Of a stretch of 64,000 nt of DNA, positions 5,670-54,900 are shown piece after piece. Under the pieces are notes generated by a model. It was not told where the DNA came from. It worked only from the letters and a program-made list of their open reading frames with translations, and did not search any database. The stretch is from Mnemiopsis leidyi. Taxonomy: Eukaryota. The stretch lies in contig CM108484.1 of the NCBI GenBank assembly GCA_048537945.1, positions 4,210,494-4,274,493 of the forward strand, read 5' to 3'. A program made the translations under genes and the position numbers. The first letter of the stretch is position 1, and every line of letters starts with the position of its first letter.

Positions 5670-6399
5670 GTATGTCTGGCATTTGTGTGGACATAGTATT
5701 CCGTAACTTTTCAGCTATTCTTCCCTTTCTGCTGATGCGGCGGTTATGGATAAGGCTTTTTGCTATTTTTGTTGGCTATTTATGTTCTGTACATTTTCGC
5801 TAAACTGATAAGGTATCTCGTTGTTCTGATGCACGTTTTTCTCTAAAAAGGTCGGACAACAAGTGCCTTTCGAATTGGAATTAACGGACAGACTGCACGG
5901 AAATAGTAGTCCGAGCGATGGAGAAAAAATCAAACGATTGGTAGTGTGCCTTTAATGTATTCCGCTGAGTGCCAAAATATTTCCAGTTTTTCGGAAACTT
6001 TTTGGTGCAGTTTTGGTCTTGTGTGATCTCATTTACAGTCTTGAATGTGCCTGTGTTACTCATTGTTAGTTCCTACAACTCCATATAGATAATGTAACTG
6101 TTCTTCATACATCACATAAAAAATATTGCATTTCTGAATTTTTCTTCGATAGATCATTGGACTGGCCTGTGACCTATGTAAATTGTATCAGGAAGTAAAA
6201 ATATCGCTTGCTTCGGATACTTATCTCCGTTTTATGCTACCGGAAACGGACCTCAGAATTTATATTGCATGTAATCAGCTACTAATTACTATCCTTTAGG
6301 AATTTAAGATGCTTTCATTCTCAACTTCGGTATGAAATAAAAACGTAATTTGATAGAAACTTAATTTCTGGGTTTGAAGTAAGTGCGCAGCATGAGTGA

Positions 6400-6600
6400 T
6401 CTCCACCCAAACCTCCTCCCCACACCCCCACCTCCCTCCCTAGCTCCTTCCTCCCTCCTTCTTCGTGAATGACGGAAAATTTACTCTATCTAATCTCCTT
6501 CTCCCTTCCCTTCTCTATTTCTCCCCCACCCATACCGGCCCCTCCCCACTCCTTGTGTATGACAGAAACTTCACTTCCTCCAATTTCAGATTTCTTCCTC
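6400..6600. repeat. CT/CCTCC-rich low-complexity tract
   Basis: Pyrimidine-rich simple sequence. Confidence 0.6.
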
Positions 6601-18892: not shown

Positions 18893-18952
18893 ACAAGGCA
18901 TTTCTCTTGCCTCTGTCATTCTTAATAATCGATCTCCCCTTAGTGTCATGTA

Positions 18953-21831
18953 ATGGCTGCAGTATTAGATGACAACATTTTTGAAAACATTTTCTCAGAA
19001 GCTAAGAAATGTGAAGAGGATGGATATCTAGAGGAAGCACTATCATTGTATAAGAATGCTCACCAGCTTCATCAATCTGACAGTTCTAAATTTGCTATTG
19101 ACCGACTCACTGATTTGTTAAATTCTAAATTGGTCAATAGTTTCCATGATAATTTGAATCTCCAAGCTTCTCCTCATTTCCAATCGACTCCCTACAACAC
19201 CCAAGGAGATAACTTAGCCATGAATGGACCATCAACTTACAATATGTCCACTACAACTCCATTAAAATCGGCCTTAGATCACATCAAAAGCCTTGATATA
19301 AGTGCCATTAATCAGTCCAGTAACATGACTATAGCAGTGCAGGAGGGTGAGAAATCATTTGATGCTGGAAAGTACAACAAGCTTATTGTTGAGGCTCGGT
19401 CTCTTTATAAAAGTGGAAATGAACTTCAAAAGGCTTTAGAAAAATATGAAGAGGCGTATTCCTTGCATGAAGATGCAAAATTGCTAAAAAGGATTGTTAA
19501 AATTCAGCAGGAACTCAAATTAAAGCAGGTTGAAACATATGTAGACACAAATGCCCTTAAAAACAAATCTGATAAAGAAGATCAGATTGATCAGTATAAC
19601 AACTTTGTCATTAATGCCAAAGCTTGTATGGAATCAGGAAGCCCAGATGAAGCCCTTCAGCTTTATCAAGAAGCCTACAAAATTGATCCATCTGAAAGAC
19701 TTAAAAAGAAAATCGACAAGTTACTCGAAACATTAGCCCAGTCAGCAGGGGATGAAAGTATAGATGTTGAACATTACAACAAACTAATCATGGATGCAAA
19801 AGTGAAGCTTAAGGAAGAGGACTACCAAGGAGCATTATTGTTGTATGAGAATGCTCATGAGTTAAATCCGAATGAGAAGTTGCAAAAGAGAATTGATAAG
19901 ATTAAGGACTTCATTGAAAATGATGTTGAGGATGATAATGAAGAAAATCAGGATGAACAAACAACTCCAACGAATAATCTTAGTCCTTCTAATGACAAAA
20001 ATTGGAACAAATCCATGATGCAATCAGAAGTTGATGAACAGTGTAAAGGCCTCATTGAGGATGCTAAAAGATGGGAGAAAACTAATAAGATAAGTGAAGC
20101 ACTTGATGCTTATAGAGAAGCCCAGAGTTTAAAACCCTGTCCTTACTTTGTTCAGAAGATTACTGATCTTGAAAAAAAACTTGACATTAATGAAAATGAT
20201 GGTGATGATGGTGAATCTGAATTAAATGTTGAGCATTATAATCAGCTTATTATCAAGGGAAGAGAGCATCTTAATGATGATAATATGGATAAAGCTCTAA
20301 AACTGTATGAAGAAGCCTATGAGATCAATCCTTCAGAAAAGCTTTCCAAAAGAATATCTAAAATAAAGAACAAGTTGTCTGAACTTAATAATGGTGAAGA
20401 AGCTGGTGTGGATGAGGAAGTTAAAGAATTTTATGACGCTACCATTGCCGATGCCAAGATAAAAGAAGACAAGCTTTTGTATGACGAGGCAATTGCATTG
20501 TATGAAGAAGCAAATGAGCTCATTCCCAGCGATAGCTTGTCTAGAAAAATTGCTAATCTTGAATTCAAAAGGGACTCTGACAAAGACGCTGAATCTCAGA
20601 AACCTAGTTCAGTGCAAAGTCTCGATGATCTGTCTGCATTTGAGAAAGCAAAGTACAACGAATTAATTGTCAAGGGGAAATATGCGCAGAAAGAATCTAA
20701 GATCGAAAAAGCATTGGGTTATTATAAAAAAGCTGCTCAGATTTACAAAAATGAAAAGCTTGGTACTCGAATTCAAAAGTTGGAAAAGTTTCTTGAGGAG
20801 GAAGCAGAGAATGAAAATCTTTACACAGATATTGGTGATGGCCTCTTTCTAACTAACGATGTCCATGACAAATTGTATCAGTATCAAAGAGAGGGTGTGA
20901 AGTGGATGTGGGAGCTGTATCGAGCTGAACATGGAGGAATTCTTGGAGATGATATGGGCCTGGGCAAAACGATCCAAACAATTGTTTACTTGCAAGCTTT
21001 ATTCCTCATGGAAGAGATATCTACAGCAATGCTGTGCATGCCACTCTCACTTATCAACAACTGGCAAGAGGAATTCAAGAAATGGGCTCCTGAAATTAGA
21101 GTGGAACTTTTCCATGGATCCAAGGCTGAGCGGGAAAGGAATGTTAAGAAGGTTATTAAGCGAGGAGGTGTCATACTGACAACATATGGGATTATCGAGA
21201 AAAATGTTGAGTTCCTGGTGAATACTTCATTTAAGTGGGATTATCTCGTATTGGATGAGGGACACAAAATCAAAAATCCAACAAAGACCAGTAAAGCTAT
21301 GAGGAATGTCCCCTGTAATCATCGTCTTCTTATTTCTGGAACTCCTATCCAGAATAACCTAAAAGAACTTTGGGCATTATTTGATTTTGTCTCGCGAGGT
21401 AAGCTATTGGGAACCATGACAACCTTCAAGATGAATTACATAACACCCATCGAAAGAGGTCGTGAAAAAGATGCTTCAAAGGCAGAGGCTAAGCTTGGTG
21501 CAAAACTTGCAGAGAATCTCAGAAAATTGATAGATCCCTTCTTTTTGCGTCGAACAAAAGCAGAAATCAAGTCCAAAAACACTGACAGTGCTTCTGCTTT
21601 TAGCAAACTAGGGAAGAAGAATGAGCTGTGTGTATGGCTACAGCTTTCTGATGTACAACTCAACCTGTACAAAGCTTTTCTTACCCTTGACTCTGTCCGC
21701 GATGCCATGAATTCTTCAAAATCTCCTCTCGCTGCCCTAACTGTTCTCAAGAAAATTTGTGATCATCCACGCCTGGCTATCAAGTTTGAAGCTCTAAGAG
21801 AAGTCATGGATGCCGACAATATGAGCATGAA
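18953..21831 (+). CDS. ERCC6L: PICH exon 1: 8 tandem TPR-like repeats plus SNF2 N-terminal ATPase lobe
   Basis: ATG at 18953 and donor AA|gtgagt at 21832. About 640 aa of ~45-aa repeats (YN.LI..A......Y..AL.LYEEA.EL.P.EKL.KRI.KI), then [16 protein letters not shown]... Confidence 0.85.
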
Positions 21832-24800
21832 GTGAGTTGTTTCCCTATTTGTCTAATTTGAGTTTCAGAATAATTACATATTAGGGAAAGGGTAGTTTGG
21901 TTAATGTGTTTTGCCCATTGCGCTATAATTTATGCCATAAATCTAAACGGTGCTCCTATTTGTATTTCCATTGTTCTTTGTTTATTCATCACCACATCTC
22001 CCTAAAAACTTTCTTTAACACTTGTCATGCTTTCAGACCTGACGATCACCAAAAACTACTGTCAACAGTGGAGCTCCCTAAAGATCCAGCAGATGAAATT
22101 TTGTTGAGGGAAAGTTGCAAATTGAAGTTTGCCCTAGAGCTGTTGGATCATCTCCATGCTGATGGTCATAGAACACTTTTATTCTCAACCTCCCTTAAGA
22201 TTCTCAATTACATCCAATCAATGATAGCTGACAAGGTATGTCAAAAATTGAGCCTTAGTACGTTAAATTTTGACATTATAATGAAATGTCCAATGATTCT
22301 GAACAGCCGTTTTTGAATGGCCTTCTAAATTTAGTTAACCAAGCGGCACAGTACGTGCAGTATTTATTTAACAGTTTAAGGGCTTTTGACTCGCTTTTGA
22401 GCGATCATTATCTCAAAATATTCGTTGATTATACCCAACCCCCCCCCTTCCCCCTCTTTGGGCATCTTCCTCCACCCCAGCTGCCTATCTATATTTTGCA
22501 CCTAAACTGGCATAACCTTACGGCTTACATAGATCTAATAACAGGGGTTGAAATGTTTGAGGATAGACGGTTCTATAAACAGGCCAGGAGAAAGACAGGA
22601 GATTATTGATAAGTTTAACACTGACATGAGGTACAGTGTACTACTTCTTACCACGCAAGTTGGTGGTGTCGGGCTAAATCTTACATCTGCAAACAGAGTC
22701 ATCATCTGTAAGTTTTCAATACTGTAAGATATAGATACTGTTTTTACATATGATACCAACTCTCGGTTGTCATTGTGTTTGAGCAAATTAAAAGGAGGAC
22801 CAGCTATGAAATTATTTTTAAAATTTCAGATGATCCGAACTGGAACCCAGCAACAGATGCTCAAGCAGTGGACAGATCCTACAGGATAGGACAAACAAAG
22901 CCCGTAATTGTATATCGGTTGTTAACTAGTGGGACTATAGAGGAGAAGATATACAGGAAGCAGGTGTTCAAAGATAGCATCACCAGACAGGCTACTGGAG
23001 AGTCGTTCGATCCTATCAGGTGTGGAAATAATTACTTGTCTTTGTGATAGAGGAAGTACTCAATAAGGTTTCTCACTTTACCATGATCATCTTATTAACT
23101 CTACAAATGACAAGCCACAGTGTTGGCTGAGTAACTGATATATCTCACCCTTCTTCAAATATGTACAAGTACAGAAATACAAATACACTAATACAACTAC
23201 ACAAATACACTTTCTGTTCAGGTACTTCACAAACCAGGAGATATCCCAACTGTTCGAGTTAGGAAGTACTTCTACCAGTGAAACATGCGATCAGCTAGAA
23301 CAACTGCACGGTGCAGACAGAAACCATTCAGAGCAAGTACGGACCGACTTGGCTGCAATCTCTGGAATGGGTTAGTTTATTTCAATTCGGATATCAGATA
23401 TTTGATTATTTGGGTGTGCTTTTTTTCTCGGTGCCATATTGGTACAACATTTTTGAATTAAAATGTGCACCACATTGGTTGTCTTATTGTTTTACCTATA
23501 ACCTACTGTTACAGGCGCTATTGGATGTAGCGATCACGATCTTCTGTTTTCTCATGAAGAGGTTGTGGATAACACCCCTGAAGAGCGCCAGTTTGTTGAA
23601 GAAAGGGTAAGTTTTCTGCAAATCATTACTGGGAACGTACCTGTTGCATGTTATGCCAGACCTTTTTCGTTACACTGTAGAAAATAAACCAAATTTTCAC
23701 TGCCAAGCTATACCAGTGTGTAAACGCAGGTCCTTTCTTTACATGCTTAGATGTTTTATGTAACGCGCGAACGCCAAACAAAAAACCCATGAACGTGCCT
23801 TCGCACGCGCGAAATTTAAAATTGATATATTGATTGAGGCGCGCCCGGCATAATATATTGCAATGCAGCACATGACATGACATGTGATCAAAATTAAATT
23901 CGATCATAGGATCTAAGCCAAAATGTGATTTAAATCAAAATGTTGATATAAATATATAATCTAGTCTATCAATTTCATGTTTCTATCAGTTTATTTATTT
24001 GACATGATTCTTCTAATTCTGTCCAATATTATAAATTTGTGAACATTTTCAGGTCCAACAAGCTAAGAGAAACCTAGCTGCGGAAACAGCTGCAGGTCCA
24101 TCCCCCTTCCCTAATTACACAGTGCCGCCCCGCAATAACCCTGCTGCTACTGCAGTACCACTCAGTGGGGGCATGAGAGCGCCTTGGGAACCAACCAGGG
24201 GACACAGTCTGTGGAACAACAAGGAAAATGAGGTTGAAACTGTCCGCAAAGATGTAGAGAGGGTTGAGATAAGAGAGTCTCCTTACTTTCAATCTCCAAT
24301 GAAGGGCAAGTTAACTGAGGTTATTACAATAGAGGACGACATGGACGAGGAAAAAGAGGAAGAAGCAGAACAAAGAAAGAAGTTGTCGTTGTCAGACTAC
24401 AAGAAGAGACAGATGAAGATATTCGACTATGTGGACAGTCCAACTCGACAGCCTAGAGAGACTACTTCATCCAGCCCCGTCTTCGTCAGCCCTGTTCGAC
24501 CTAGGAACGTTGTTAAGAAAAACGTTGTCACACCCAGGAAATCACTCAGTAACCCAGTCGGACAAATAATAGCTAATCACATCCTTAACACTCCCAAGAA
24601 GAACGACCCTGACAGCGATGACGAGGTTCAGGACGATCTAGAAAGTTCTAGATACGACAATCTGAACAAACCGCCCTGTCTGGACGAGTCTGAGGACGAG
24701 GAGGATTACTATGAGGCGCGGGAAGAATCTGAAGAGACGGGAGAGAGATCAGCTGAAGAGGATGCGGACAATGGGGACCAAAGTGAGGAAGAGGAGGATG

Positions 24801-25889
24801 AGGAAGAAGTAGAGGTGGTGGAAGTAGAGGAAAAACCTGAAAAAGTAGACGATCTTGCTGGTTTGGTGAAAAGTTTCAAGTTTGAATCTCCCAAAAGCAG
24901 CGATCAGGCAGCTAATCAAGGGGTCGAGAAAACTACAGAGATACGCAAGGGGCTTGAGCCTAAAAACTTGCTGACAGAGAGACTCCAGACTCACGCCAAT
25001 GATTCTGAAGTTAAGACTCCAAATATCCACGAGTTCGGGCAGCAAACCGGAAATGCTCAGTTGCAGAAGACAGAGAATAAAGCTTCTGTGAGAAGAACAA
25101 GTCCAGGGAATGATAAGGAAAACAGAAATCCAGATTCATCTCCTTCTTCTAACACAGGTTTCAAGTCAAGCTGAAATTTAAACAAAATTTAAGAATTTGG
25201 ATATGTGGACCAGTTTACTTTTGTTATAACTGTTTTTGACGAAGAATATTAAGCATAAGCAATTTTAGGTTCCGTATAAAGAATATTTGACCTCTGCGTT
25301 TCCATAACCTAGCACATTTTCTTTCCCCAGGAGGCTGCACGTGCGGCAGACTACAGGCCGCAGTAAAGAAGGGTTACAAAGTCACCAAGTGTAAATGCAT
25401 GTGTAGTTCTTCAGAAGAGGACAAGTATAATCGATACCTTGAACGTGGACTGTAAGTTTTTCACAGATTCCGGAATAATTATAATTTTACGTTACCCCGA
25501 ACCACATTTTTATCGGAAGTTTTATTAGTTTTTACTTATCTATACAATTAAAAGGCAAATATTTTGTACTTTTGGTAATTAAATTAAAAGAATGTATTTC
25601 TTACTGGATGCACCCTGCATCACATGAGCAGCTTCTTATATTGATAAATTATTTAGTCTAGAATTATATTGTGATGCAAAATGTTCTAATTACAATTACA
25701 ATTAAATACAACATTCGAAAATTTTCGCAATATCGTTATTTCAACATAACCCACTGCAGAGAGCACCACAAGGCAGGAAACACTGGGAAAGCTCTTCAGT
25801 ACTACAAGGCTGCATTGCAGTACAGAAACGATGACACGACCGTTCAGAAGGCGTATCTTACTCTGAAGAAGCAGCAGAAGAACAAATAA
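18953..25889 (+). CDS. ERCC6L: ERCC6L/PICH-type SNF2-family DNA translocase gene, complete, 9 exons
   Basis: Strong colinear similarity to PICH through the ATPase domain ([68 protein letters not shown]) and the helicase C-terminal domain ([57 protein letters not shown]). N-terminal and C-terminal TPR-like motifs as in PICH. Confidence 0.85.
22037..22235 (+). CDS. ERCC6L: PICH exon 2
   Basis: Acceptor tttcag|A and donor AAG|gtatgt. [67 protein letters not shown] matches the PICH linker and start of helicase-C. Confidence 0.8.
22545..22707 (+). CDS. ERCC6L: PICH exon 3 (helicase C)
   Basis: [54 protein letters not shown](C/Y). Acceptor aacag|GGG and donor T|gtaagt. Confidence 0.8.
22830..23019 (+). 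CDS. ERCC6L: PICH exon 4 (helicase C motifs V-VI)
   Basis: [64 protein letters not shown]. Confidence 0.85.
23222..23370 (+). CDS. ERCC6L: PICH exon 5
   Basis: [50 protein letters not shown] with splice sites in phase. Confidence 0.7.
23515..23606 (+). CDS. ERCC6L: PICH exon 6
   Basis: [31 protein letters not shown] matches PICH GIAGISDHDLMY...QQRVQKAQF. Confidence 0.7.
24053..25157 (+). CDS. ERCC6L: PICH exon 7: long acidic/Ser-rich low-complexity region
   Basis: Acceptor ttttcag|GTC CAA ([11 protein letters not shown]...). Inferred donor aacacag|gtttca at 25157/25158 so the frame joins the next exon. Otherwise the ORF stops at 25174. Confidence 0.55.
25331..25451 (+). CDS. ERCC6L: PICH exon 8
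   Basis: ccccag|GAGGCT...GGACT|gtaagt. The frame gives ...[22 protein letters not shown] and joins the terminal TPR exon. Confidence 0.5.
25583..25705. repeat. ~130-bp repeat copy B inside the last PICH intron
   Basis: Matches 18758-18892. Confidence 0.8.
25760..25889 (+). CDS. ERCC6L: PICH exon 9: C-terminal TPR-like motif and stop
   Basis: [43 protein letters not shown] resembles the PICH C-terminal TPR (GKIQEALNCLVKALDIK...) and the N-terminal repeats of exon 1. Confidence 0.6.
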
Positions 25890-37981: not shown

Positions 37982-40900
37982 GTACGTCAGTTTTTCTGTC
38001 TGTAGATTTGTCTGTTCATTTATCTGTAAATCTGTCCGTAAATCTGTCCGTGAATATGTCTGTTTGTCAGCCTATATTATTTGCTATAGGTTTGTATAAG
38101 TTTGCCTGTTCGTCGGTTTTTCTGGAGAACTTATTTGTTTTATATGATCTTTGGGAGTCAGTTCCTTCACTGAGCCAACAGTGGAATTGCAAAATTCAAA
38201 CTCTGAAAAACCTGACAATCTCCATCACTGCATCAACCTCAGGTTCCGACATGATAACTTCTGAACCTAGAAGGTGGCCCGCTGGAATATTCGGACTGCC
38301 AGAAAGAGCCGGTCTTCTTCACGACATTTCCTCCTTCGACTCCTCCTTCTTCGGAGTTAGCGCCAAACAGGGACATCAGATGGATCCTCAACTTAGAGTC
38401 TTGCTAGAAGTTGCTTACGAGGCTATCCTTGATTCGGGTAATTACGCGAGTTCTCAAAAATTAGGACGTTGCCACTAAATTCTTTCTCCTTCTATTACTA
38501 CAAACTACAAGTGCTCACTGCTCGAAAAGAATTGTAAAGCTATAAATTTGAACACAACTACGTCTGGGGAAGCAATAAGTGTGAATTATAACGAATATAC
38601 CAATAATACCCCGACAGGATACCACCCAAGTGAGTTGAAAGGGAAGAAGATAGGAGTGTACGTGGGGGGTTCCTCCTCCGAGGCGTACGACGCTTGGACC
38701 ACTGACGCAGACAGTCAGACGGGGTACGGACTGCTGGGGTGCTGTAGGTGCATGTTGGCAAACAGAGTAGCCTTCACTTTCGACTTCAGAGGACCCAGCT
38801 ACACGCTAGATACTGCATGCAGCAGCTCCATGTTCGCTCTAGATGCTGCTCACAAGAGTGTGATGCTGGGAGAGTGTGACATGGCCCTGGTGGCGGGGGT
38901 GAACCTCCTTCTCAAACCTAACTGTTCCCTCGACTTTCATAGACTCTCCATGTTGTCACAAGATGGGTCTTGCAAGGTTGGTGGAGTCACCTTAAAACTT
39001 TAAAATTGAATTTGTAGATCTGAATCCGTGCATTAGTTGTTATCTGTATCAATCAGTAACTATGTATAGTAATTATAGTAACTATGTATATTAAGGTACA
39101 TATATATATTCACCCTCCATATATGGGTATATATATACACATTTGTCAGGTGTTTGATGAAGGAGCTAACGGTTACGTAAGAGCAGAGACAGTAGCTGCA
39201 GTAATGTTATGTAGAGAGAATCTCGCAAGGAGAGCGTACGCGAGGATACTGGGTACTCGGACCAATACTGACGGGTATGATCTCTTCTGGTGATTCTCGG
39301 TTTAACCGTATCAAATTTAATGGGAGCACTAATCAAGTCTTCCACGTTTTGGGGAAAGATTATTTGGGGAGGGGTTGCAAATTTGACAGAATTGGTTGCG
39401 GAGGAGGGCTCTCAAATCACATGTAAGAAGCGGGAGAAGTAATGATTAATATGGAATATCAGATTTCTGAAAATCTATTAAGGGGTCAGAAATTGGTGAA
39501 ACCCAGCCTCAATATCTCCAGGTACAAGACCGAGGGTATAACATACCCCAACCACGAGATACAAAGCGAACTGCTCAAGGATCTGTATCAGACTGCAGGG
39601 GTATCGCCTGATGATGTGTACTATTTGGAGATGCATGGGACCGGGACACAGGTACTATAGATTTACAGTGGGACACAGGTACTATAGATTTACTGTGGGA
39701 CACAGGTACTATAGATTTACTGTGGGACACAGGTACTATAGATTTACAGTGGGACACAGGTACTATAGATTTACAGTGAGACACAGGAACTATAGATTTA
39801 CAGTGAGACACAGGTACTATAGATTTACAGTGGGACACAGGTACTATAGATTTACTTTGGGACACAGGTACTATAGATTTACTGTGGGACAGAGGTACTA
39901 TAGATTTACTGTGGGACACAGGTACTATAGATTTACTGTGGGACACAGGTACTATAGATTTACAGTGGGACACAGGTACTATAGATTTACAGTGGGACAC
40001 AGGTACTATAGATTTACTTTGGGACACAGGTACTATAGATTTACTGTGGGACACAGGTACTATAGATTTACTTTGGGACACAGGTACTATAGATTTACTG
40101 TGGGACACAGGTGGTATAGATTTACTTTGGGACACAGGTACTTTAGATTTACTGTGGGACACAGGTACTATAGATTTACTGTGGGACACAGGTACTATAT
40201 ATTTACTGTGGGACACAGGTAGTATAGATTTACTGTGGGACACAGGTACTATAGATTTACAGTGGGACACAGGTACTATAGATTTACTGTGGGACACAGG
40301 TACTATAGATTTACTGTGGGACACAGGTACTATAGATTTACAGTGGGACACAGGTACTATAGATTTACAGTGAGACACAGGAACTATAGATTTACAGTGA
40401 GACACAGGTACTATAGATTTACAGTGGGACACAGGTACTATAGATTTACTTTGGGACACAGGTACTATAGATTTACTGTGGGACAGAGGTACTATAGATT
40501 TACTGTGGGACACAGGTACTATAGATTTACTGTGGGACACAGGTACTATAGATTTACAGTGGGACACAGGTACTATAGATTTACAGTGGGACACAGGTAC
40601 TATAGATTTACTTTGGGACACAGGTACTATAGATTTACTGTGGGACACAGGTACTATAGATTTACTTTGGGACACAGGTACTATAGATTTACTGTGGGAC
40701 ACAGGTGGTATAGATTTACTTTGGGACACAGGTACTTTAGATTTACTGTGGGACACAGGTACTATAGATTTACTGTGGGACACAGGTACTATATATTTAC
40801 TGTGGGACACAGGTAGTATAGATTTACTGTGGGACACAGGTACTATAGATTTACTGTGGGACACAGGTACTATATATTTACTGTGGGACACAGGTAGTAT

Positions 40901-43900
40901 AGATTTACTGTGGGACACAGGTACTATCGATTTACTGTGGGACACAGGTACTATAGATTTACAGTGGGACACAGGTACTATAGATTTACAGTGGGACACA
41001 GGTACTATAGATTTACTTTGGGACACAGGTACTATAGATTTACTGTGGGACACAGGTACTATAGATTTACTTTGGGACACAGGTACTATAGATTTACTGT
41101 GGGACACAGGTGGTATAGATTTACTTTGGGACACAGGTACTTTAGATTTACTGTGGGACACAGGTACTATAGATTTACTGTGGGACACAGGTACTATAGA
41201 TTTACAGTGAGACACAGGAACTATAGATTTACAGTGGGACACAGGTACTATAGATTTACTGTGGGACACAGGTACTATAGATTTACTGTGGGACACAGGT
41301 ACTATCGATTTACTGTGGGACACAGGTACTATAGATTTACTGTGGGACACAGGTACTATAGATTTACAGTGGGACACAGGTACTATAGATTTACAGTGGG
41401 ACACAGGTACTATAGATTTACTGTGGGACACAGGTACTATAGATTTACAGTGGGACACAGGTACTATAGATTTACAGTGGGACACAGGTACTATAGATTT
41501 ACTTTGGGACACAGGTACTATAGATTTACTGTGGGACACAGGTACTATAGATTTACTTTGGGACACAGGTACTATAGATTTACTGTGGGACACAGGTGGT
41601 ATAGATTTACTTTGGGACACAGGTACTTTAGATTTACTGTGGGACACAGGTACTATAGATTTACTGTGGGACACAGGTACTATATATTTACTGTGGGACA
41701 CAGGTAGTATAGATTTACTGTGGGACACAGGTACTATAGATTTACTGTGGGACACAGGTACTATAGATATACTGTGGGACACAGGTAGTATAGATTTACT
41801 GTGGGACACAGGTACTATAGATTTACTGTGGGACACAGGTACTATCGATTTACTGTGGGACACAGGTACTATAGATTTACTGTGGGACACAGGTACTATA
41901 GATTTACCGTGGTTTTACCGTGGTAACTTTCCTTAAGTAAATGCCTGACTCACAAACGTCAAAGCCAAAAATCGTATTAAAAAGAAAAAAAAGAAACAAC
42001 CAGCTCAAATCACATCCCCAGGCTGGAGACACACAAGAGATGATGGGGGTTGAGAAATACTTCCTGAAGGGGGGCACCCGCCCCAAACCCCTCTACGTGG
42101 GAAGTGTGAAGAGTAACATTGGGCACAGTGAGCCGAGTAGCGGGGTAGCCGCTCTCACCAAGATACTTCTCTCTTATCACTACAAGAAGATACCTGCCAA
42201 CATCAACTTTAATAAACCAAATCCTAAGGTTTGTTTTTGCAAACTTTATTTTATCTATTCGTTGCTAAATCTTCTTTTTTGAAAAAATAACCGTACAGTT
42301 CTAAATTTAAAACTTATTGTTTTTATATTGCGGGAGAAAAATCTCCCTAGCAAATTGTAGAGTGACAAATAGCGTTTACTGTACGGTCCAGAAACACAGT
42401 TGATATCTGGGTTGAGGTTATCCGTTATTCTCACTTTTTTCTTTGACTTGTAGCAACTGATATACAGTGTCTGCAGTTGCGGGTTTTGGTCGAATATGTG
42501 AAAGAATTAGTGAGCGCTTAAACAGATTGAATGGAGTATAAACCCTATTGCATCTGTTTTCTTCACTTCTCAAGTTCTTAGTGTTAGTCCATCATTAGGC
42601 TCGCTTCCACGTCGTCCATGTAGTACCCGTATCTCCGTATTTAACATCTAGCTGATTTTGATTTAGGTCTTCAAAATTTCAAGATTTACTCACTATCTGC
42701 GAAGACCTCAACCTCTGCCAATGATAAAACTGACGTACCACCCTGTATTTGAATACTTGATCCTTTAACTGTCAGATCAGAGAAATCATAAAGATAGGTT
42801 CCTGACTGGTACGTTATCGTGCCGATAAGCTCCGCCCCATCGTAGTTTCCTCCTGTTAAGCCAACTCCCACCCAGATCTTTACTCCGTTTATTCTTTGGG
42901 GTGCATCATATCTGTTGTACACCTGAAAGTTGGAAGCCACTACACAATGTTTATAATCATTTATTGTCTATTTCAGCAGCATAAGTTGGTTCTGCTGTAC
43001 CAATTTTCACCTGCGATAAAGGTATAAATTACTCAACGCTCTTCCTCAAATTCGCATTTTTTCGTAAAACATTTTCTTCTCGAAATTCTAGTGTTGAAGG
43101 CGACGAAATATTTAATGATCGAGTCTCTTACCGTAATTTGACAAATAGCACAAACTCTCGGCAGTGTTAGCAGCCACCAGGCTGCCGGTCCTCCAGTGAT
43201 TGTATGGCTGAAGTCAAATTCGTAATGCCTGTGAGTGTTCAAAATTATGATTTTGCCGTTTGCTTGATTTTAAGGTGCCTTTTCGGTAAATAATGTTAAT
43301 GAAAATAGCTGGAAGCAAATATGTAATCCTAGGTGGTTGCTCGATGATGCTACGTAATAATCATTTCGGGCCGGAATTCGTGGATGACTGGCTTAATCGC
43401 TAATGTTTAGATTTTAAAATAAATCGAATTTCTTGAAATCAGAATCAAACTGGAGTACCTTCCATGTTTTATTCCGTCGATAGCTCTGGCAGCACTTAAG
43501 GATATGTTCTTAATGGGATCAACATACGTGTCAGTTTGTGTTGCAGTGCCTTCACGAGCAATGTTTTTCTCGGTACAAGAAGCGTTTACTCTTCCTGCAT
43601 AGATCAAATCTTAGTTTTCCAGATATTGTCATCCAAATTTTGTTTAAAATCTAGACCCAAGTTTGACTACTACTATTGCTACTACCACTATGCGTTTAGC
43701 CTGGTGAACCTAATGGAAATCCTTGCTGTACGGCATGTTAAACAAGGAATGGAGCTAAGAAGTTCCATGCAGTCCAATCTTTAGTGCAACCTTAACATTG
43801 TAGATATGTTATCATTTTGATTGCATAGCTCACCTTGAAGACCGAGGAAGAGTAGTATCAAAAGTTTATACATTGTAAAATCAGGATTATCCATTTTTCC

Positions 43901-46900
43901 TCAAACAGGGGCTATGAGATGTGTATGTAACTTTCTTTCATTTCAGTTTGATAGTTATTATTATCAAACAAAAATTTTTATATAATTAGCTGGATTCAAA
44001 TTATTGGCAGGATTCAATGCACTCAGAAATAAAACACAATGTGTAAGATGGTGTGGCCATCAATACACTGAACTAAGACTAAAACACAATGAGTAAGATG
44101 GTGTGGTCATCAATACACTGAACTAAGACTAAAACAAAATGTGTAAGATGGTGTGGTCATCAATACACTGAACTAAGACTCAAACAAAATGTGTAAGATG
44201 GTGTGGCCATCAATACACTGAACAAAGACTAAAACACGATGTGTAAGATGGTGTGGTCATAAAGGCATTGCACTAAGAAACAAAGCAAAATGTGTAAGAT
44301 CATGTATAAACAATGCACTGTACCGATTAAGTGTTCGCACTTAACCTGATTCTCCGGCACACCGTGTTATAAATGCTTTGTTCCCATTTTAAAGTGGATA
44401 ATGATATGGAGAGAGCGGGAGAAGGACCGAGGGTCAGAGAGAAAGAGGGGAAGAAAGACAGAGGGACTGTAGGACAGAGCGAAAGATGGTCAGATGAACA
44501 AAGGGAAAGGGAGACTGATTGACAGACTGACAGAGGAAGACAGAAGGGGATGACGTAGGTAGTCATCTACGCACTACAAAGCGATAAGTAGGCCGTACAG
44601 AAAAATAGAGAAATTGAAATTGAAACTCATAGCCGACGCTTGAAGGCACTATTTGGAGCCCCAAGGTAAATTCCTTATCATCGGAATCACGATCGGAGAG
44701 CATGAAACAACAATTTAAAGTTCATAATATTGCAACTTTTTCTATTATAGATCACATGACTTTGGCTTTAGATCAAATGACTGATGGTGGTAGCAATTGC
44801 TTTAGATTACTGGACTCTTTTTCGGGACCTAAACTCGGCGCTTCCTCTTTTGAATACACTGGTCGAGTACCGTCAGAAAATTGATTTCATATCTAAGGTA
44901 AGGTATCAGGTAATTCTTCCTAGATCCTGTGTTATCGGTTGTAATCCTTGGCCGAACGCAAATAAGCTTATTTCTGGGTCAGCCAGGTGGAGAGAGCGCT
45001 GTTTTCACTCTCAACATCCAGATCGAGATGTTAGAGATTCGTCTCTGAAGTATCTGACCTGTCTTATCATACCCTTCTGGTGAGTCACTCAAATCAGGGA
45101 ATTTCAAAGGGTCACTCACCTTTATCAGTAAATGGTACATATACTTCAACTTCTGCTAAACTTAGATAATCCGCGCCACCTTGAATTTGAACACTGGATC
45201 CACTAGCGTGGAGGTTAGAGAAGACATATGGGTTGGTTCCTGACTGGTACGTTATCGTGCCGATAAGCTCCGCCCCATCGTAGTTTCCTCCTGTTAAGCC
45301 AACTCCCACCCAGATCTTTACTCCGCTTAATCTTTGGGGTTGTAAGATTCTGTTGAACACCTGAAAGTGAGATCTGTACAATATATTACGTCGTGATTCG
45401 TTATTACCATTAATTAATGGTCACATACTGAATGTCTGACGCTGTTTCTTTGTTTGTATTGGACGTGGTTATAGTTGGAGGATGGAGGGGGAGGGACGTG
45501 GTAATAGTTGGAGGATGGAGGGGAGGGACGTGGTAACAGTTGGAGCATGGAGGGAGGAAGGAGGTGGTAATAGTTGCAGGATGGAAGGGGAGGGACGTGG
45601 TAATAGTTGGAGGATGGAGGAGGAAGGAGGGGGTTATAGTTGGAAAATGGAGGGAGGAAGGAGGTGGTAATAATTTGAGGACTGAGGGGGTGGGAGGTGG
45701 TAATAGTTGGAGGATGGAAGAGGAAGGAGGTGGTAATAGTTGGAGGATTAGAGGGGGTGGGAGGTGGTAATAGTTGGAGCATGGAGGGGGAGGGACGTGG
45801 TAATAGTTGGAAGATGAAGGGAGGAAGGAGGTGGTAATAGTTGGAGGATGGAAGGGGAAGGATGTGGTAATAGTTGGAAGATGGAGGGAGAGGGAGGAGG
45901 AAAGTGGTAATAGACGCAGGATGGAGGGAGGAAGGAGGTGGTTATAGTTGGAGCATGGAGGGAGGAAGGAGGTGGTAATAATTTGAGGACTGAGGGGGTG
46001 GGAGGTGGTAATAGTTGGAGGATGGAGGAGGAAGGAGGTGGTAATAGTTGGAGGATAGAGGGGGTGGGAGGTGGTAATAGTTGGAGCATGGAGGGGGAGG
46101 GAGGTGGTAATAGTTGGAGCATGGAGGGAGAGGGAGGTGGTAATATTTGAAAGATGGAGGGAGGAGGAAAGTGGTAATAGACGCAGGATGGAGGGAGGAA
46201 GGAGGTGGTTATAGTTGGAGCATGGAGGGAGGAAGGAAGTGGTAATAATTGGAGGACTGAGGGGGTGGGAGGTGGTAATAGTTGGAGGATGCAGGAGGAA
46301 GGAGGTGGTAATAGTTGGGGGATAGAGGGGGTTGGAGGTGGCATTAGTTGGAGGATAGAGGGGGTGGGAGGTGGTAATAGTTGGAGCATGGAGGGGGAGG
46401 GAGGTGGTAATAGTTGGAGCATGGAGGGAGAGGGAGGTGGTAATATTTGGAAGATGGAGGGAGGAGGAAAGTGGTAATAGACGCAGGATGGAGGGAGGAA
46501 GGAGGTGGTTATAGTTGGAGCATGGAGGGAGGAAGGAAGTGGTAATAATTGGAGGACTGAGGGGGTGGGAGGTGGTAATAGTTGGAGGATGCAGGAGGAA
46601 GGAGGTGGTAATAGTTGGGGGATAGAGGGGGTTGGAGGTGGCATTAGTTGGAGGATAGAGGGGGTGGGAGGTGTTAATAGTTGGAGCATGGAGGGGGTGG
46701 GAGGTGGTAATAGTTGGAGCATGGAGGGAGGAGGAACGTGGTAATAGTTGGAGGTGGATGGGGAAGGAGGTGGACAGGTGGTTATAGTTGGAGGATGGAG
46801 GATAGAGGGGGCGTGGTAATAGTTGGAGGATGGAGGGAGGAAGGTGGTGTTATGGTTGGAGGATAGAGGGGGTGGGAGGTGGTAATAGTTGGAGGATGGA

Positions 46901-48902
46901 AGCGGAGGGACGTGGTTATAGTTGGAGCACGGAGGGGGGAGGGACGTGGTAATAGTTGGAAGATAGATGGAGGAAGGAGGTGGTAATAGTTGGAGGATAG
47001 AGGGGGAAGGACGTGGTAATAGTTGGAGGATGGAGGGGGAAGGACGTGGTCATAGTTGGAGGATGGAGGGGGAGGGACGTGGTAATAGTTGGAGGATAGA
47101 GGGGGTGGGAGGTGGTAATAGTTGGACGATAGAGGGGGTGGGAGGTGGTAATAGTTGAAAGACGGAGGGAGGAGGAACGTGGTAATAGTTGCAGGATGGA
47201 GGGTGGAAGGAGGTGGTTATAGTTGAAGGATGGAGGGGGCGTGGTAATAGTTGCAGGATGGAGGGGGACGGACGTGGTAATAGTTGGACGATGGAGGGAG
47301 GAAGGTGGTGTTATAGTTGGCGGATGGAGGGGGAAGGACGTGGTAATAGTTGGTGGATGGAGGGGGAAGGACGTGGTAATAGTTGGAGGATGGAGGGGGA
47401 AAGACGTGGTCATAGTTGGAGGATGGAGGGGGAGGGACGTGGTAATAGTTGGAGTATAGAGAGGGAGGGACGTGGTTATAGTTGGAGGATGGAGGGGGAG
47501 GGACGTGGTAATGGTTGGAGGATTGCGGGGAGGGAGGTGGTAATAGTTGGAAGATGGAAGCGGAGGGACGTGGTAATAGTTGGATGATGGATGGAGGAAG
47601 GAGGTGGTAATAGTTGGAGGATAGAGGGGGTGGGAGGTGGTAATAGTTGGAGCATGGAGGGGGAGGGACGTGGTACTAATAGTTGGAGGATAGATGGAGG
47701 AAGGAGGTGGTAATAGTTAGAGGATGGAAGGGGAAGGAAATGGTAATAGTTGGAGGATGGAGGAGGGGAGAGGTGGTTATAGTTGGAGGATGGAGGAGGA
47801 AGGAGGTGGTAATAGTTGGAGGATTGAGGGGAGGGACATGGTAATAGTTTGAGGATGGAAGGGCAGGGAAGTGGTAATAGTTGGAGCATGGAGGGAGGAA
47901 TGAGGTGGTAATAGTTGGAGCATGGAGGGAGGAATGAGGTGGTAATATTTGGAGGATGGAAGGTGAGGGACGTGGTAATAGCTGGAGGATGGAGGAGGAA
48001 GGAGGGGGTTATAGTTGGAGCATAGGGGAGGGAAGGAGGTGGTAATAATTTGAGGACTGAGGGGGTGGGAGGTGGTAATAGTTGGAGGATAGAGGATTAG
48101 AGGAGGTGGGAGGCGGTAATAGCTGGAGGATGGAGAGGGAAGAAGGTGATAATGGTTGGTGGATGGAGGGAGGAAGGAGGTGGTTATATTTAGAGGATGG
48201 AGGAGGAACTGAAGAAGGGAGCATGGAGTATGTGTGGAGGGAGTGTGATTAACCGGCTGGAGGTCAGGGCCCATGCTACCTAGCTAGATATCATGGATAT
48301 AAGGGATTAAGGGATGCTCATTTACAATACAACCTTTTCGCTTCGTCAAATTCGCTGGGTTGGCATAGATTTTCGTTTTTTTGTCTTGATTTGGGAGTTT
48401 TTGTTTTGTTTTTTGTGCTATTGTGTCTAGGAAGAAGTTGATACGAGACTCCTAAAAAGTTTTAAAGAACGGATAAACAAAAAAAATCGCGACACCAAAA
48501 TTGTTGGTTTGGTATTGGTTTACTGGTAAACGACCCCCATGAGTTTTTGCTACTCTTCAATAAAATTCTATTTTGTACCTTAATTTGACGGATAGGGTAA
48601 ACTGTCGGTAGTGTGAGTAGCCACCAAGCAGTTGATCCTGTCGTTTTTGTATGGGTAAAATCCACTTCTCCATTTATATCTCTGAGACAATTGGATGCTT
48701 TACTTTCAGCCGATTTAAACTCAACAGACCGATTTTGCTAAAGGCATTGATGAAGGTTAACGATTAGCGATTGAAATTAATTGCCATAGCAGTTAGAAAT
48801 GTTCGCTTTTTATTTGACCGGCTCACAGATTTACCTATGCTATATAAAAAATACAAATCGTAATGAAGTCAAAATTATCTTTCATACTATTATTATTAAC
48901 CT

Positions 48903-48934
<32 letters not shown>

Positions 48935-51900
48935 AAGGCACTGACCATGACCATGACACCCTGGAATTTGACTTTGGAAAATTAGGATTTTTTGGTCAAA
49001 ATTTTGACCATTTGACCAAAACCATGACACCCGGACGAAAGGCAAATGGTAAAAGAATCGTGGTCATCCGATCCCCCCCCCCCCCCGTTATCGTTCAAAG
49101 ATAATAAATGTGAAGAATGTTTTCAATTTTTCCATCGCTAATACTTTTTTGCCGAAGGCAAAAAAGTAAAGTAGATGGACAGATGGTTTAAAGTGGACGG
49201 ATTTTGGGGTGGGTCGTGGCTAGGTAGGTAGATAAATTTGGTGGATGTCGGCGTGACAGAGGCAACCATGTGTTAAACTCCGCAAGACGATAGTAACCAC
49301 GTTGGGGGCTGCTCCTACGTAAAGTAATTTGAATGACGTAAGGGATTATAGAAATTGTAAATGCGTGATGCGCGGCGCACACTGCACAGTATGTACAAGT
49401 TCAAAAGTCCATAGGTTTGTAATCGGTATGGCCGAATTTAGGTATGCTAAATCTGGTCGCAAAATAGAGGACAGCTATAAAATGGCGGGCATTAGTGGAA
49501 AGGCTGCCTTATAACATAGTAGGTTACTAGCAAAAATAGTGGGTAGCTAGCGAAAAATAGCGGAAAATCTATATTGGGGTTGTACAAGCTCTACGATTAA
49601 ACATTATGCCTAAGAAACGATTTAACGAATAATCACTACGAAAGATATGGCACCGGACAAGAATGGAAACGTATTTTATACGACAACAGGAAATAAGTCA
49701 GCAAGGAACGACGTAACACTAACTGCGTCCACGAAACTGTGTCGACCACGTTTATGATATGTAGAGTTTTGGTAACGCACAGCACTCAACAGAGTTCTTG
49801 ACACGATGTTGCCGCATTCTGCGGCCTGAGGCAGTTATAAAACCTATAATCGTAATCGTATACATAATTAAGTTTGATAAAGGAGCGTGCGCGCGGACGT
49901 ACGTACGTACGTACGGACACTTTTTGAGCTAATATTCCAAAATTACGCTGTCGATCGCCAACCCTTGTTTTGTACTTTTTGTGCACGTGCACAAAACGTA
50001 TCAAAACAATCTTGACTTAGTAGTTTGTAGCGTAAACTGTCGTTCAGGGTCCACAATCGCGCTTAGCAATATGTTAACCATTACTAGTCATGAGTCAAAC
50101 GCTATAGTTTTTAGTTAAATTCTCAGTTAGCCGTGACTGCTTTTAATTCATAACGGTATATATAAATAACTAGGTAATAGTTTACAATAACTGCAACAAG
50201 GAATGGAAGCTAAGGGGTTCCGTGCAATCTTTAGTGCAACCTTTACATTAATTCAGTAGTCCGGTGAGACGTACTGGTGGCGGTTCCTCCGCCCCGTTGC
50301 TCACATAACGACTAGCTTGTTATTAACATCTCGCATCGATTGAAGAGTACTGTGTTATCACATTTGAAACACAAAGAAATTTAATACACCGATGCAAAAG
50401 TATATATACTACTTCTGCACTTAAGATCTGGATATGTGCCTAGCCTGGCGAAGTTAGTGGAAATCCTTGCTGTACGGCATGTTAAACAAGGATTGTAAGC
50501 TAAGGGGTCCCGTGCAGTCCAATCTTTAGTGCAACCTTTACATTCGTACTGAATACATATCATCATTCATCACAGTATCTAGTTAAAGATGACTGCAACT
50601 TCATAGCGGTATTTAGTCTAAAAGAGAGATGGCGTCCGCCTGAGACCAAACTAAGCGGACGCAATTCTTGTTAAACTTTAACTAGGGATGGGCATTCAGG
50701 CGACTACTTACTCTTGTATTTAGTATTTATCATTGATAATAGCGGCTGCTATTCTTGTTAACGCTTTCGACAATGCAAATTTTCCTAAGAATTTTCCTAA
50801 GAATTAATTTGGTTCAACTTGAAAACTGTCTCACTTTCCGTGCTTTATTCCGTCGATAGCCCTCGAAGCTTCCACAAGTTTGTAATTACCCATGTAATTG
50901 TATGTTTCGCTTTGGGTTGCCGTGCCTTGGCGAGCAATGTTTTCTTGCAGAAAGTCGGCGTTGCTTTTCCCTGGACGGAGTTGTCATAAATATTCTTGAC
51001 AGGTTATTTGTCATGGAAATTTCAGAGCTAAGGCAATGTGGCAAAACCTTTCTCTTGTTGATAAGAGATATTGCATTTGTATTTGTATTTGTTATATCTG
51101 TTTTTCGACTGAGTCGACCGAAGAAGATTGCATAGGCAAATGATTGATGGATCTGGGTATCGAACCCCCTACCTTCTCGATAGGAATCCTATTAGGTAGA
51201 CGCCACTATATCCCCAGTGGGGATATAGTGGCGTCTACCTAATATGGGGTGGGGATTCCCCACCCCATATTGTCCTTACCTAGTAGGAGCAGGAAGAAAA
51301 GTATCGATAGAACCACCATCACAAGATCGTCTTTCTGTAACCTTAAGCTTTGTAGTCTTTTACATGGAAAGCTAGAAAATTGATATGATCAATGAGCAAA
51401 AAACAATAAATAGATGAAAATTAGCTTTCCATTAGACTCCTCAAAAAAATCCAAAATATGTTCTTCTTTGAAAATCCAATCTTATGTTCACTAAAACTCC
51501 GCTCTCCTACTTCCAATTTCCAAAGCGTTCTCTTAGAAACAGCTATGGTGACTCCCTGCAATGAAAAAGAAAATTTGTGCCATAAAAACTCCTAGCAGTG
51601 CCCTGTGCCATTTGAAACAGAAACACCAAATGTTAGTGGTCGAACAGGAAACTGGAATTTACATCACACTTCTCTCTCGCATCATACTCTCTTAAGTTTG
51701 TAAGTTGTCGCTCTAACTATCCACGTGTTGCCACCTGAGCAGTGGTTTGATAAGGAGGAAAAGTTCTAGTTCCATTTCATAATTGGTAGTTCCTTTTCAG
51801 ACTTAAATTTTACTGTTCGATCTGTGCAGCCTCGTACTGCCATCAATTAGATCAAGTAAACCGAAAAAGCTACTGAAGTACGTGTCACCTTGGCGACAGC

Positions 51901-54900
51901 AAGAAGCTAGGAAGTGGACAGGATATATGCGAGTCTACTTGTGGTGTGAGCTAAGCAGCTGATAATAAAACAGGTAAACCTAAATTCGCGTGACGAAACT
52001 CCTCCAGCTAAGGTTTAGAAGAAGCGGACAATTATATGGCGGGGCTGTAAAGTGTTCATCGTCGTGAACTACCCTTAAAATAGCACGTGTGTGAAATGGT
52101 ATGGTGGATAATGTGAATGAGCCGATAAATTGTTCCTGATTCAGTGATTTGCTGAAACTTCAATGAGCAGTTAGACGTTTGTTCTCCCCTCAACTGGAGT
52201 AGAGAGGCGCTCCATTAGCATTTAGCACTTCATGCTCGGTTAACCGGCTTAGTATTACATCATTGCTATAGATTGGAACATATAGGGGTTACAATGTTTG
52301 GCATTGCTATTGCTATGGGTGGTAAGGTATAGAAGATTATGATGTTTTACAATAGCTATTGCTATAGTTGGGTCGGTAAGACTAAGAATACGTTGAGGTT
52401 TGACTCAAAAGAGAAAGCCTGGGAACAAAGCCGAAAGTTATTGCATACAACAGAGATAACAGGCGGGTTGAAATTAAATTATCAAGTCTAATAAATTATT
52501 CGGGGCGATCGTTTGCGGCACCTACTCCACACAAGTAAGCAATGATTGGACTTCCGTCTTCCGATAGGGTGCAATTAATGTTTTAGTTAAACTTGAACGT
52601 TTTTATTCATCCTTTCAGCTGACGCCAATAATAGACGGAAGAGTGGTGCCAGTGACGTCACACTTAGAGTTAAGATCAGGGGATATCATCGGGATCAACT
52701 CATTCGGTTTTGGAGGAGCCAACGCACATGTCATTCTACAGGTAGGCTGAGTATATTGAATTTAGCATTTCATCCAAAAATCGATAGAGTTAGTGTTTTT
52801 TTGTGAACGCATCAGCTGAAATTTATTTCGATATCTGTGATTTTGCTGCTTTACTCAAGTTAAAAACTTGGACAAAGGGAACAAATAATATATTATAGTA
52901 TTCTCCATTATTAACATAAGAGCTAAGGTATCAGTTTTAACACTCCCTGACTGAGGACTACAAATATTCCCAGGGTGTATCCGGGGACGAGCCGAGACCT
53001 GTAAACTCTGAAATACCCATGTTGGTTCCGTACTACAACAGAAAAGCCGAGCAAACACAGTCGGCCTTGTGTCAGATACGAGATGAACATGTCACACATG
53101 ATAAACTCAGCTACCTTCACATGATAGCGCAAGTAAGGATACTTAATTAACTATATCATTTATCTATATCATTTATCTAAATGGTAGAGCTCTCTAGAAA
53201 TGTTTATTCAAGTGTGAATCTCACCTTTGAATCAGGATGTTCAGAAGGATTTTCAAACAAAAATACAGATGACCCTCCTGATCCATTATCATAGTAAACG
53301 TGATTATCATAGTAGAAATTAGGAATTTTCTATATTATGTATAAGACGATTAACCCGTTCGCCCCCGAGGTCGATATATATACCCGCTCTAGCGACTAAT
53401 ATTGTGCCATATCTATTTGTCATAGAATCAATTTCTTTAGTGAGTTCGCTTTTAAAAACTCAGTTCTATCCATGACAACACTCATTTTGAAAAAAGAAAT
53501 AGTTTTTTCGATAATTACATTAATTAATTAATAAAATAATTATTTAATTATTTTAAATTGCGCATAAATATTGCTCATGAACTAATTTCTCAAAATCATC
53601 TCGGGACCATGTACAGCGATGCTTTAGCAAATATGGAATCATGCAAACTGTTTGGTTGTGGATAAAATGTATCCACAATGAGTCGTTAAAGTGCGGGTAT
53701 ATATATCGACCTCGGGGGTTCGCCGGGGGAAGTCGAATTATTTTGAGGAAAAATCCATTTATATGCCATGGTAATCCGTTTTAGTGCAAATTTGATAGCT
53801 TGTTTCATTATTTAGGTTGTTTCCAACAAAAGTTTGTGGAAAAATTCTAACTATCCTTGCGACTTCTCAAGTAAAGTATAGCAGGTCGATAAATCGACCC
53901 TGGGATATGAGAGATGTGAATAGTCTAGACCATAATGTAAAAGTATTTGCAAGTTTAGCTACACGTGTGAAACTTATTAGAATTGCTTTTCAAGGTGTAT
54001 AGAACCGATGTTGACCAGTTAACAATCCACCTGGGGTGGGGAGGGTGCCCAAATGACCACACCCTATTGTGCATATCCCCGTCACGGCCCTCAATAATCC
54101 TGCTGAAATAAACATCGCAGCATACGGATCTGGCCTTATTCATGGCAAAGTGAAAGACCGTGTGACTCTCCATCAGCAAAGAAAAAGTTGGGAAAAGCTT
54201 GGTCTGGGATTTTGCAATGAGGTCACTCAATAATTAGAATGGGTCTCTTGCCGGCAAATATGGGTCTCTTGCCGGCCTAAAAACGGCCGATAGCCGGCTG
54301 ACATCAGGCCTGTAGCTGGCCTATATCAGACTGGCTATATAGGCCGTTTACAGGTCCGATATAGGCAGGCTATTGGCCATTAAAAGGCCTTTTATTGGCC
54401 TTATATGGGCCTTGTATCGCCCTTACAGGCCTTGTATTGGCCTTGCATCGGCCATTCGACCGACTAAAGGTCGGAACTAATCTCCCAATCTGCCCTTTTG
54501 CCAACTTGCAGAAATGCCTTGACAAAACAGATTCCAGCTACCGAACTTTCGGAACTGGGGAACTGTCGATGCAAAACAAGTTTACACCGTGCATAATGTG
54601 CATCAATTATAGTCCTGAATAGTTTTTGGCAAATCAAGCCTTCTTCTAGTCTCCTGGTAATCCTCAAAGCGTGATTAAAACCGTACTTTAGTATCATGTC
54701 CACAGAAACGTCCCATCTGTGACGGCAAATGCTAAATTATGTGATGTTTTATCCTTTCAAGTGTCTTCTGAGGATGTGAGAAGCACAAGGAAGCCTCGCA
54801 TCAAGAGCAATCGCTGTTTGTCATATTAGAATGAAAAAATATTAAGATACAGTTGTAAGAAAGTGAAAATAGCAAGGCAGAGTAGGTAGAGAGCTTTTAT

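Follow-up and report, generated by a model that had tools for sequence, protein, structure and literature searches.

Two probable tandem F-type lectin genes nested antisense in a fatty acid synthase intron of Mnemiopsis leidyi

The prototype of the single-domain, secreted F-type lectin is the agglutinin of the eel Anguilla anguilla (AAA, PDB 1k12). The striped bass lectin MsaFBP32 (FBP32, PDB 3cqo) is a binary tandem of two such domains in one chain. Ctenophora are not discussed in the 2017 review of the F-type lectin family (PMC5712786). Nested genes have been catalogued in the ctenophore Hormiphora californensis: 2,357 lie in introns of 1,654 hosts and make up 12.24% of exonic bases; they are whole genes within one host intron, often antisense and often repeat-flanked (PMC8527503). 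Here we describe a locus of Mnemiopsis leidyi that comprises two copies of an F-type lectin unit, probably two separate genes, both situated on the opposite strand inside intron 6 of the fatty acid synthase (FAS) gene. The analysed DNA, hereafter the window, is a stretch of 64,000 nucleotides (nt) of contig CM108484.1 (assembly GCA_048537945.1, positions 4,210,494 to 4,274,493 of the forward strand). All positions without another source refer to the window.

The joined translation of six minus-strand exons was compared with the protein database and matched two M. leidyi GenBank proteins, each corresponding to one half of the query with 99% identity. KAL5255941.1 (ACHWQZ_G011229, 175 amino acids (aa)) corresponds to the copy named gene 1 here and KAL5255940.1 (ACHWQZ_G011228, 176 aa) to gene 2. 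The two models are consecutive loci with one domain apiece. Both deposited proteins were placed residue for residue on the window by tblastn (~100% identity), and this search found no further lectin exons or copies elsewhere in the window. AG acceptors and GT donors are present at the predicted junctions of the six exons. Intron phases are the same in both triplets: exon a is entered in phase 1, the a/b and b/c introns are in phase 2 and phase 0, and exon c would be left in phase 1 if the donor-like site at its end were used. The AG/GT ends, the matching phases and the 99-100% identity of the exons to the GenBank proteins confirm the six exons at the positions given in a preliminary description of the locus. 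Its statement that exon sizes are equal in the two triplets holds for exon a, which is 136 nt long in both, but not for exon b (103 versus 97 nt, a difference of two codons) or exon c (241 versus 229 nt, four codons). It had also swapped the domain labels 1 and 2 between its sentences.

The hydrophobic N-termini of the deposited proteins lie outside the six exons but are encoded in the window, at 51319-51280 and 43894-43834, in two exons that the preliminary description had not seen. The first of these is the signal-peptide exon upstream of 50970 for which a search of 51000-52600 had been proposed. The predicted gene structures are then:

51280-51319, minus strand: gene 1 exon 1, ATG and hydrophobic signal-peptide core (13 residues + G), with a phase-1 donor G/GTAAGG after 51280
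50835-50970, minus strand: gene 1 exon a, 136 nt, with the signal-peptidase site KSNA/D and the AIDG calcium-type motif; ends in phase 2
48579-48681, minus strand: gene 1 exon b, 103 nt, with FTHT (triad His) and WWLLTLP; ends in phase 0
45112-45360, minus strand: gene 1 exon c, from VFNR...QRL (triad Arg, Arg) to LSLAEVEVY; 241 nt (45360-45120) up to the donor-like G/GTGAGT; stop TGA at 45114-45112
43834-43894, minus strand: gene 2 exon 1, its own ATG and signal-peptide core (20 residues + G), with a phase-1 donor AAG/GTGAGC
43459-43594, minus strand: gene 2 exon a, 136 nt, opening by completing RVNA/S
43132-43228, minus strand: gene 2 exon b, 97 nt
42686-42922, minus strand: gene 2 exon c, 229 nt (42922-42694) up to the donor-like A/GTGAGT; stop TAA at 42688-42686

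Both signal-peptide exons exit in phase 1, as required by the entry phase of exon a. By our own reading, the signal-peptidase site would be completed at the start of both a exons, as G-KSNA/D in gene 1 and G-RVNA/S in gene 2. The stop codon is reached 2-3 codons past the domain in both c exons (GGT GAG TGA in gene 1, AGT GAG TAA in gene 2), and the start, the stop, all predicted splice sites and the full reading frame are present in both copies. Each lectin gene would be transcribed from its own promoter, and its signal-peptide exon joined to exons a, b and c would yield a small secreted protein of ~175 aa with one F-type lectin domain. Cleavage of the signal peptide would follow KSNA or RVNA, releasing the mature domain for secretion.

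The host gene was located by tblastn with the N-termini of animal FASs. Residues 314-382 aligned to 42019-42231 and residues 383-421 to 52619-52741 on the plus strand, which places the lectin exons between the following host features:

42022-42228, plus strand: FAS exon 6 (ketosynthase), AG/42022...42228/GT, phase 0, donor AAG/GTTTGT
42229-52618, plus strand: FAS intron 6, 10,390 nt, with both lectin genes inside on the opposite strand
52619-52741, plus strand: FAS exon 7 (ketosynthase C-terminus), AG/52619...52741/GT, phase 0

Five earlier FAS coding exons begin from 37.88 kilobases (kb), and counting from the ATG exon makes the lectin-bearing intron number six. The joined host translation aligns with full-length animal FASs at 44-48% identity (E ~1e-220); no ctenophore FAS was among the full-length animal FASs that the homologue search returned for this query. 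All guest coding exons (42686-51319, minus strand) fall within FAS intron 6, and the flanking exons align to consecutive ketosynthase residues. The antisense location in the ketosynthase-coding part of FAS, as first proposed, is therefore correct.

The same proposal had considered this arrangement unusual, a view that does not hold against the number of nested genes in Hormiphora. No qualitative difference from these was seen, the particulars here being the FAS host and a duplicated lectin pair as guests. Likewise, LOC134811957, the closest Bolinopsis homologue, which combines an F-type domain with a Cys-rich tail (Bolinopsis CM047404.1, L001 8148-16804), is antisense-nested in a gene encoding an RsfS domain. 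Antisense nesting is ordinary for ctenophore genomes. Neither of the two remaining Bolinopsis homologues is close to FAS, and the same holds for a homologue with 75% identity in another ctenophore-like assembly. Since the homologues examined elsewhere are not near FAS, nesting in this host is probably not a conserved feature of the lectin family. It would be a by-product of ordinary ctenophore genome organisation and not a functional link to lipid synthesis.

The profile search of the joined exons that had been suggested at the outset gave a match of the domain pair to Pfam PF22633 (2.6e-10). A sequence search of the PDB with phmmer ranked striped bass FBP32 first (5.4e-18), followed by eel agglutinin (1.7e-7), with the pneumococcal and Streptococcus mitis fucose modules after both (SpX-1, 3.8e-4). 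In these alignments the His and the NR pair each coincide with their counterparts, and QR(L/I) coincides with the second Arg. H69, R97 and R103 of gene 1 align with His52, Arg79 and Arg86 of AAA, and gene 2 has the same residues. In an alignment of 26 sequences (the query and 25 homologues), the three triad columns and the landmark motifs are invariant or at least 90% conserved. An AlphaFold2 model of the gene 1 protein built on this alignment reached a mean predicted local distance difference test (pLDDT) of 88.8 and a predicted template modelling score (pTM) of 0.82. When the model was compared with the PDB using Foldseek, every entry in ranks 1-11 was an F-type lectin (1k12, 3cqo, lectinolysin and SpX modules); TM-scores were 0.78-0.80 normalised to single-domain targets. 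CBM32 and discoidin domains came next. An exhaustive HMMER search returned 1,094 relatives at E<=1e-3, headed by Xenopus "fucolectin" and teleost proteins with several domains each. Sequence, predicted fold and aligned triad identify both domains as F-type lectin domains, as the preliminary description had it. Both lectins likely bind fucose: the triad of each domain would hold terminal fucose-type sugars, as it does in fish and bacterial F-type lectins, and the protein would act as a recognition or agglutinating lectin.

The closest sequence match is FBP32, especially its C-terminal domain, which is also the second-best structural match. FBP32 and the ctenophore proteins share NIA..G.ATQS, AIDG, THT, WW, NR...R(L/I)NG and LSLAEVEV, at an overall identity of ~30%. 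However, the two domains of FBP32 reside in one chain, whereas each domain here has its own signal-peptide exon and stop. The ctenophore proteins further differ in having WWLLTLP in place of WWR(V/M)DL and an extra 13-residue loop, and the gene 1 protein has no cysteines. The top structural match is AAA (TM-score 0.79 normalised to the target, root-mean-square deviation 2.7 A), whose size is similar to that of the gene 1 and gene 2 proteins.

Two Bolinopsis microptera proteins, LOC134811957 (P0004) and LOC134817153 (P0005), belong to the same ctenophore clade, with WWLLTLP, VWVG(V/I)G(L/M)TGGDYE and 47-53% identity. Both have a phase-1 signal-peptide exon. The a/b and b/c intron positions of LOC134817153 are the same as here; for LOC134811957, the signal-peptide, c and downstream exons were mapped. 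The Bolinopsis proteins are mosaic, one adding a Cys-rich C-terminal part and the other an N-terminal discoidin-like domain, and none of the three examined lies in FAS. A relative on a TARA scaffold consists of a signal-peptide exon, a phase-1 intron, an intronless single lectin domain and a stop. Its real signal-peptide exon (MLTFLLLSTLQLLLFPACI+G/GTGAGT, L004 60-118) lies upstream of an intron of ~100 nt; the called N-terminus of this protein (P0003) was rejected as an artefact of prokaryote-style gene calling.

The lectin gene has been duplicated in tandem independently in a ctenophore-like contig (ENA ERZ25070731 ctg6469, L006 9258-12691), in which the introns of the two copies align at 72%. 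Copy A is intact, with one domain and a signal peptide. In copy B the exon-a donor is gone, and exon c is disrupted by an 11-nt frameshift and an in-frame TAG. This locus was considered as a fused two-domain gene, there being no signal exon between the copies and the first c exon being open past the donor; base-by-base alignment showed that copy B is decayed, and the fused model was rejected. No FAS exons occur within 7-9 kb. The same contig contains a third, degenerate lectin fragment (6331-6444), and an ionotropic glutamate receptor gene downstream.

The two M. leidyi copies were then compared with each other. Counted from an internal Met, the signal-peptide exon of gene 2 equals that of gene 1 in length, and by our own count the two are ~60% identical. 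This is comparable to the a and b exons (66-67%), and therefore the whole four-exon unit was duplicated. The lectin exons are 65-77% identical between copies, except for one tract of complete identity shared by the c exons:

45235-45325, minus strand: probable gene-conversion tract in gene 1 exon c, 91 nt, 100% identical to 42797-42887
42797-42887, minus strand: probable gene-conversion tract in gene 2 exon c, partner of 45235-45325

This tract encodes a ctenophore-specific segment of 30 residues, and its identity is best explained by recent gene conversion. The locus would have arisen by tandem duplication of a whole gene inside the host intron, followed by conversion between the copies. The ratio of nonsynonymous to synonymous substitution rates (dN/dS) is 0.34 between gene 1 and gene 2 and 0.14 against the intact copy of a relative. 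The lectin coding sequence is under purifying selection.

The introns of the two copies differ strongly in size. Those of gene 2 are compact (239, 230 and 209 nt), while those of gene 1 measure 309, 2,153 and 3,218 nt; in the intact copy of a relative they are ~140-175 nt long. The expansion of the gene 1 introns is both lineage-specific and copy-specific. That one copy is compact and the other expanded by repeats had been noticed from the outset, and is borne out by the elements found in the two long introns:

45461-48207, no strand assigned: minisatellite filling the b/c intron of gene 1, 33-nt unit x 82, 80% matches, score 3120, G-rich on the plus strand
48897-49090, no strand assigned: foldback in the a/b intron of gene 1, ~190 nt, bounded by TAACCTG(n)...C(n)GTTA, in which the G run is ~30 nt long and the C run 14 nt

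The foldback, which shares the a/b intron with other sequence, resembles a small inverted-repeat element.

The preliminary description had joined the two triplets into one tandem protein with two carbohydrate-recognition domains. Such a single gene would encode a signal peptide, domain 1 and domain 2 by means of a 45120->43594 splice, either as the main product or as a read-through isoform, and we regard it as rather unlikely. Several features nevertheless weigh in its favour and against two separate genes. Exon c of gene 1 ends in a perfect consensus donor (AAAG/GTGAGT) that is phase-compatible with the acceptor of gene 2 exon a (phase 1 to phase 1), so that the original phase argument is itself valid, and such a splice would remove the in-frame stop with the intron. 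In Bolinopsis LOC134811957 the homologous site does serve as a phase-1 donor, through which the domain is spliced to the downstream Cys-rich exons, and a GGTRAGT-like motif is found at the 3' edge of the domain in 6 of the 7 ctenophore-type genes examined. Tandem F-type lectin domains are moreover common in the wider family (PMC5712786). Neither AATAAA nor ATTAAA was found in the 600 nt scanned after the gene 1 stop. Downstream of gene 2 there is a single AATAAA (42245-42250), 17-22 nt from the FAS exon 6 donor (42228/42229), and polyadenylation signals are uninformative on the number of genes. However, a bona fide signal-peptide exon with a strong hydrophobic core (43894-43834) is located between the triplets. 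When the 1.5-kb spacer was scanned for phase-1 exons that begin with ATG and encode a hydrophobic stretch, no other strongly hydrophobic candidate with a consensus donor came up. It is preceded by a putative promoter element:

43975-43984, minus strand: TATATAAAAA element (TATA box), candidate core promoter read from the sequence, ~85 nt upstream of the gene 2 ATG

The GenBank models are separate, and a search of 5.8 billion clustered sequences gave no fused two-domain protein. Close relatives with intact genes are single-domain, and the two-copy locus of the ctenophore-like contig amounts to one intact gene and one decayed duplicate. Because of the internal signal-peptide exon, the TATA box, the stop codons of both copies, the separate models, the absence of a fused protein from the sequences searched and the one-domain intact relatives, we consider that two tandemly duplicated four-exon genes are probably the main products, and not one two-domain protein.

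The ligand of these two predicted lectins calls for a similar weighing. The domains could have the F-type or discoidin fold and yet recognise another sugar or a non-carbohydrate ligand, like CBM32 modules or the C2 domains of clotting factors V and VIII. This we judge unlikely, although a number of departures from the canonical site speak for it and against fucose. The strict F-type motif H-X24(26)-R-X-D-X4-(R/K) (PMC5712786) is not reproduced, the spacing being H-x27-R and R-x5-R in both copies, compared with H-x26-R in AAA. Gene 2 retains the acidic residue of the motif (RYD), while gene 1 has another residue there (RIL). Where AAA has RGDCCGER, with the vicinal Cys82-Cys83 bridge that packs against fucose, the ctenophore proteins have RILQPQR and RYDAPQR; the mature gene 1 protein contains no Cys, and gene 2 contains three at other positions. 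The calcium motif h2DGx, in which x is N, D or S (PMC5712786), reads AIDGI in both copies; the hydrophobic pair and DG are present, and x is Ile in place of the Asn of AAA. In addition, CBM32 and discoidin domains are ranked by Foldseek close behind the F-type lectins, and the single domains score 20.9-23.6 bits, under the Pfam gathering threshold of 27.8. However, both copies and their relatives retain the His/Arg/Arg triad, and fucose-binding F-type lectins make up the first 11 structural matches as well as the best sequence matches. As read from the alignment, the C-terminal domain of FBP32 shares the R-x5-R spacing and the lack of a vicinal Cys pair with both lectins. Functional F-type domains can depart from the strict motif, and viral F-type domains without the vicinal pair have Phe instead (PMC5712786). 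Fucose thus remains the likely ligand, but ligand specificity stays a prediction because the strict motif is not reproduced, only gene 2 has the Asp and the mature gene 1 protein lacks cysteines. Finally, one or both copies might be unexpressed pseudogenes left by duplication in a large, repeat-rich intron. The gene 1 introns are indeed swollen with the minisatellite and the foldback, and a relative does carry a decayed duplicate. Against this stand the complete frames, splice sites, start and stop codons of both copies, dN/dS values of 0.14-0.34 and the retention of all family-conserved residues, which together make inactivity of either copy very improbable.

The F-type lectin domain is documented in Ctenophora with fold-level support from a predicted model, and two M. 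leidyi "hypothetical proteins" of GenBank can be named as predicted secreted single-domain F-type lectins. The locus provides a small example of whole-gene tandem duplication in a host intron, gene conversion and lineage-specific intron inflation by a minisatellite. It involves no new mechanism: the lectin pair are previously unnamed members of a well-known family, in an arrangement ordinary for the lineage. A more far-reaching proposal would have these proteins form a clade of F-type lectins of the ctenophores' own, cysteine-poor, with WWLLTLP and the added 13-residue loop and with the fucose-binding triad kept. Lectins of the F-type that recognise fucose would then be present in a lineage among the first to branch off in animal evolution, one that goes unmentioned in the 2017 review, the pair in Mnemiopsis perhaps being read through into a binary lectin and, because of its antisense position, perhaps expressed in competition with FAS; we find this improbable. 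As for the AATAAA at 42245-42250, its use would make the lectin transcript end at the host splice site or overlap it in antisense.

Several other repeats were observed in and around the nested pair. A second large minisatellite (39643-41912; 27-nt unit x 84, 94% matches) occupies FAS intron 5, with several frames open (GHRYYRFTV...), and the consecutive FAS introns 5 and 6 each contain a tandem array of ~2.3-2.7 kb. A tandem repeat at 44030-44300 (50-nt unit x 5.4, 89% matches) directly precedes the gene 2 TATA box, within the spacer that separates the lectin genes. A dispersed repeat of ~108 nt is present at 43697-43802, in gene 2 intron 1, and at 50441-50548, in the a/b intron of gene 1; these copies are 88% identical, and a partial copy is found at 50195-50249. 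Within ~90 nt past the signal-exon donor, intron 1 of gene 1 contains two adjacent perfect palindromes that are unique in the window, at 51190-51244 (27-nt arms, 1-nt loop) and 51241-51271 (15-nt arms, 1-nt loop). An Rfam scan of the whole window gave no matches.

Upstream of FAS, the plus strand carries a DENN-domain exon (334-675, Pfam 6.6e-21) and a gene encoding TPR and SNF2-helicase domains (18944-25171). The latter consists of a single exon of 963 aa, with a match to SNF2-rel_dom at 4.9e-70.

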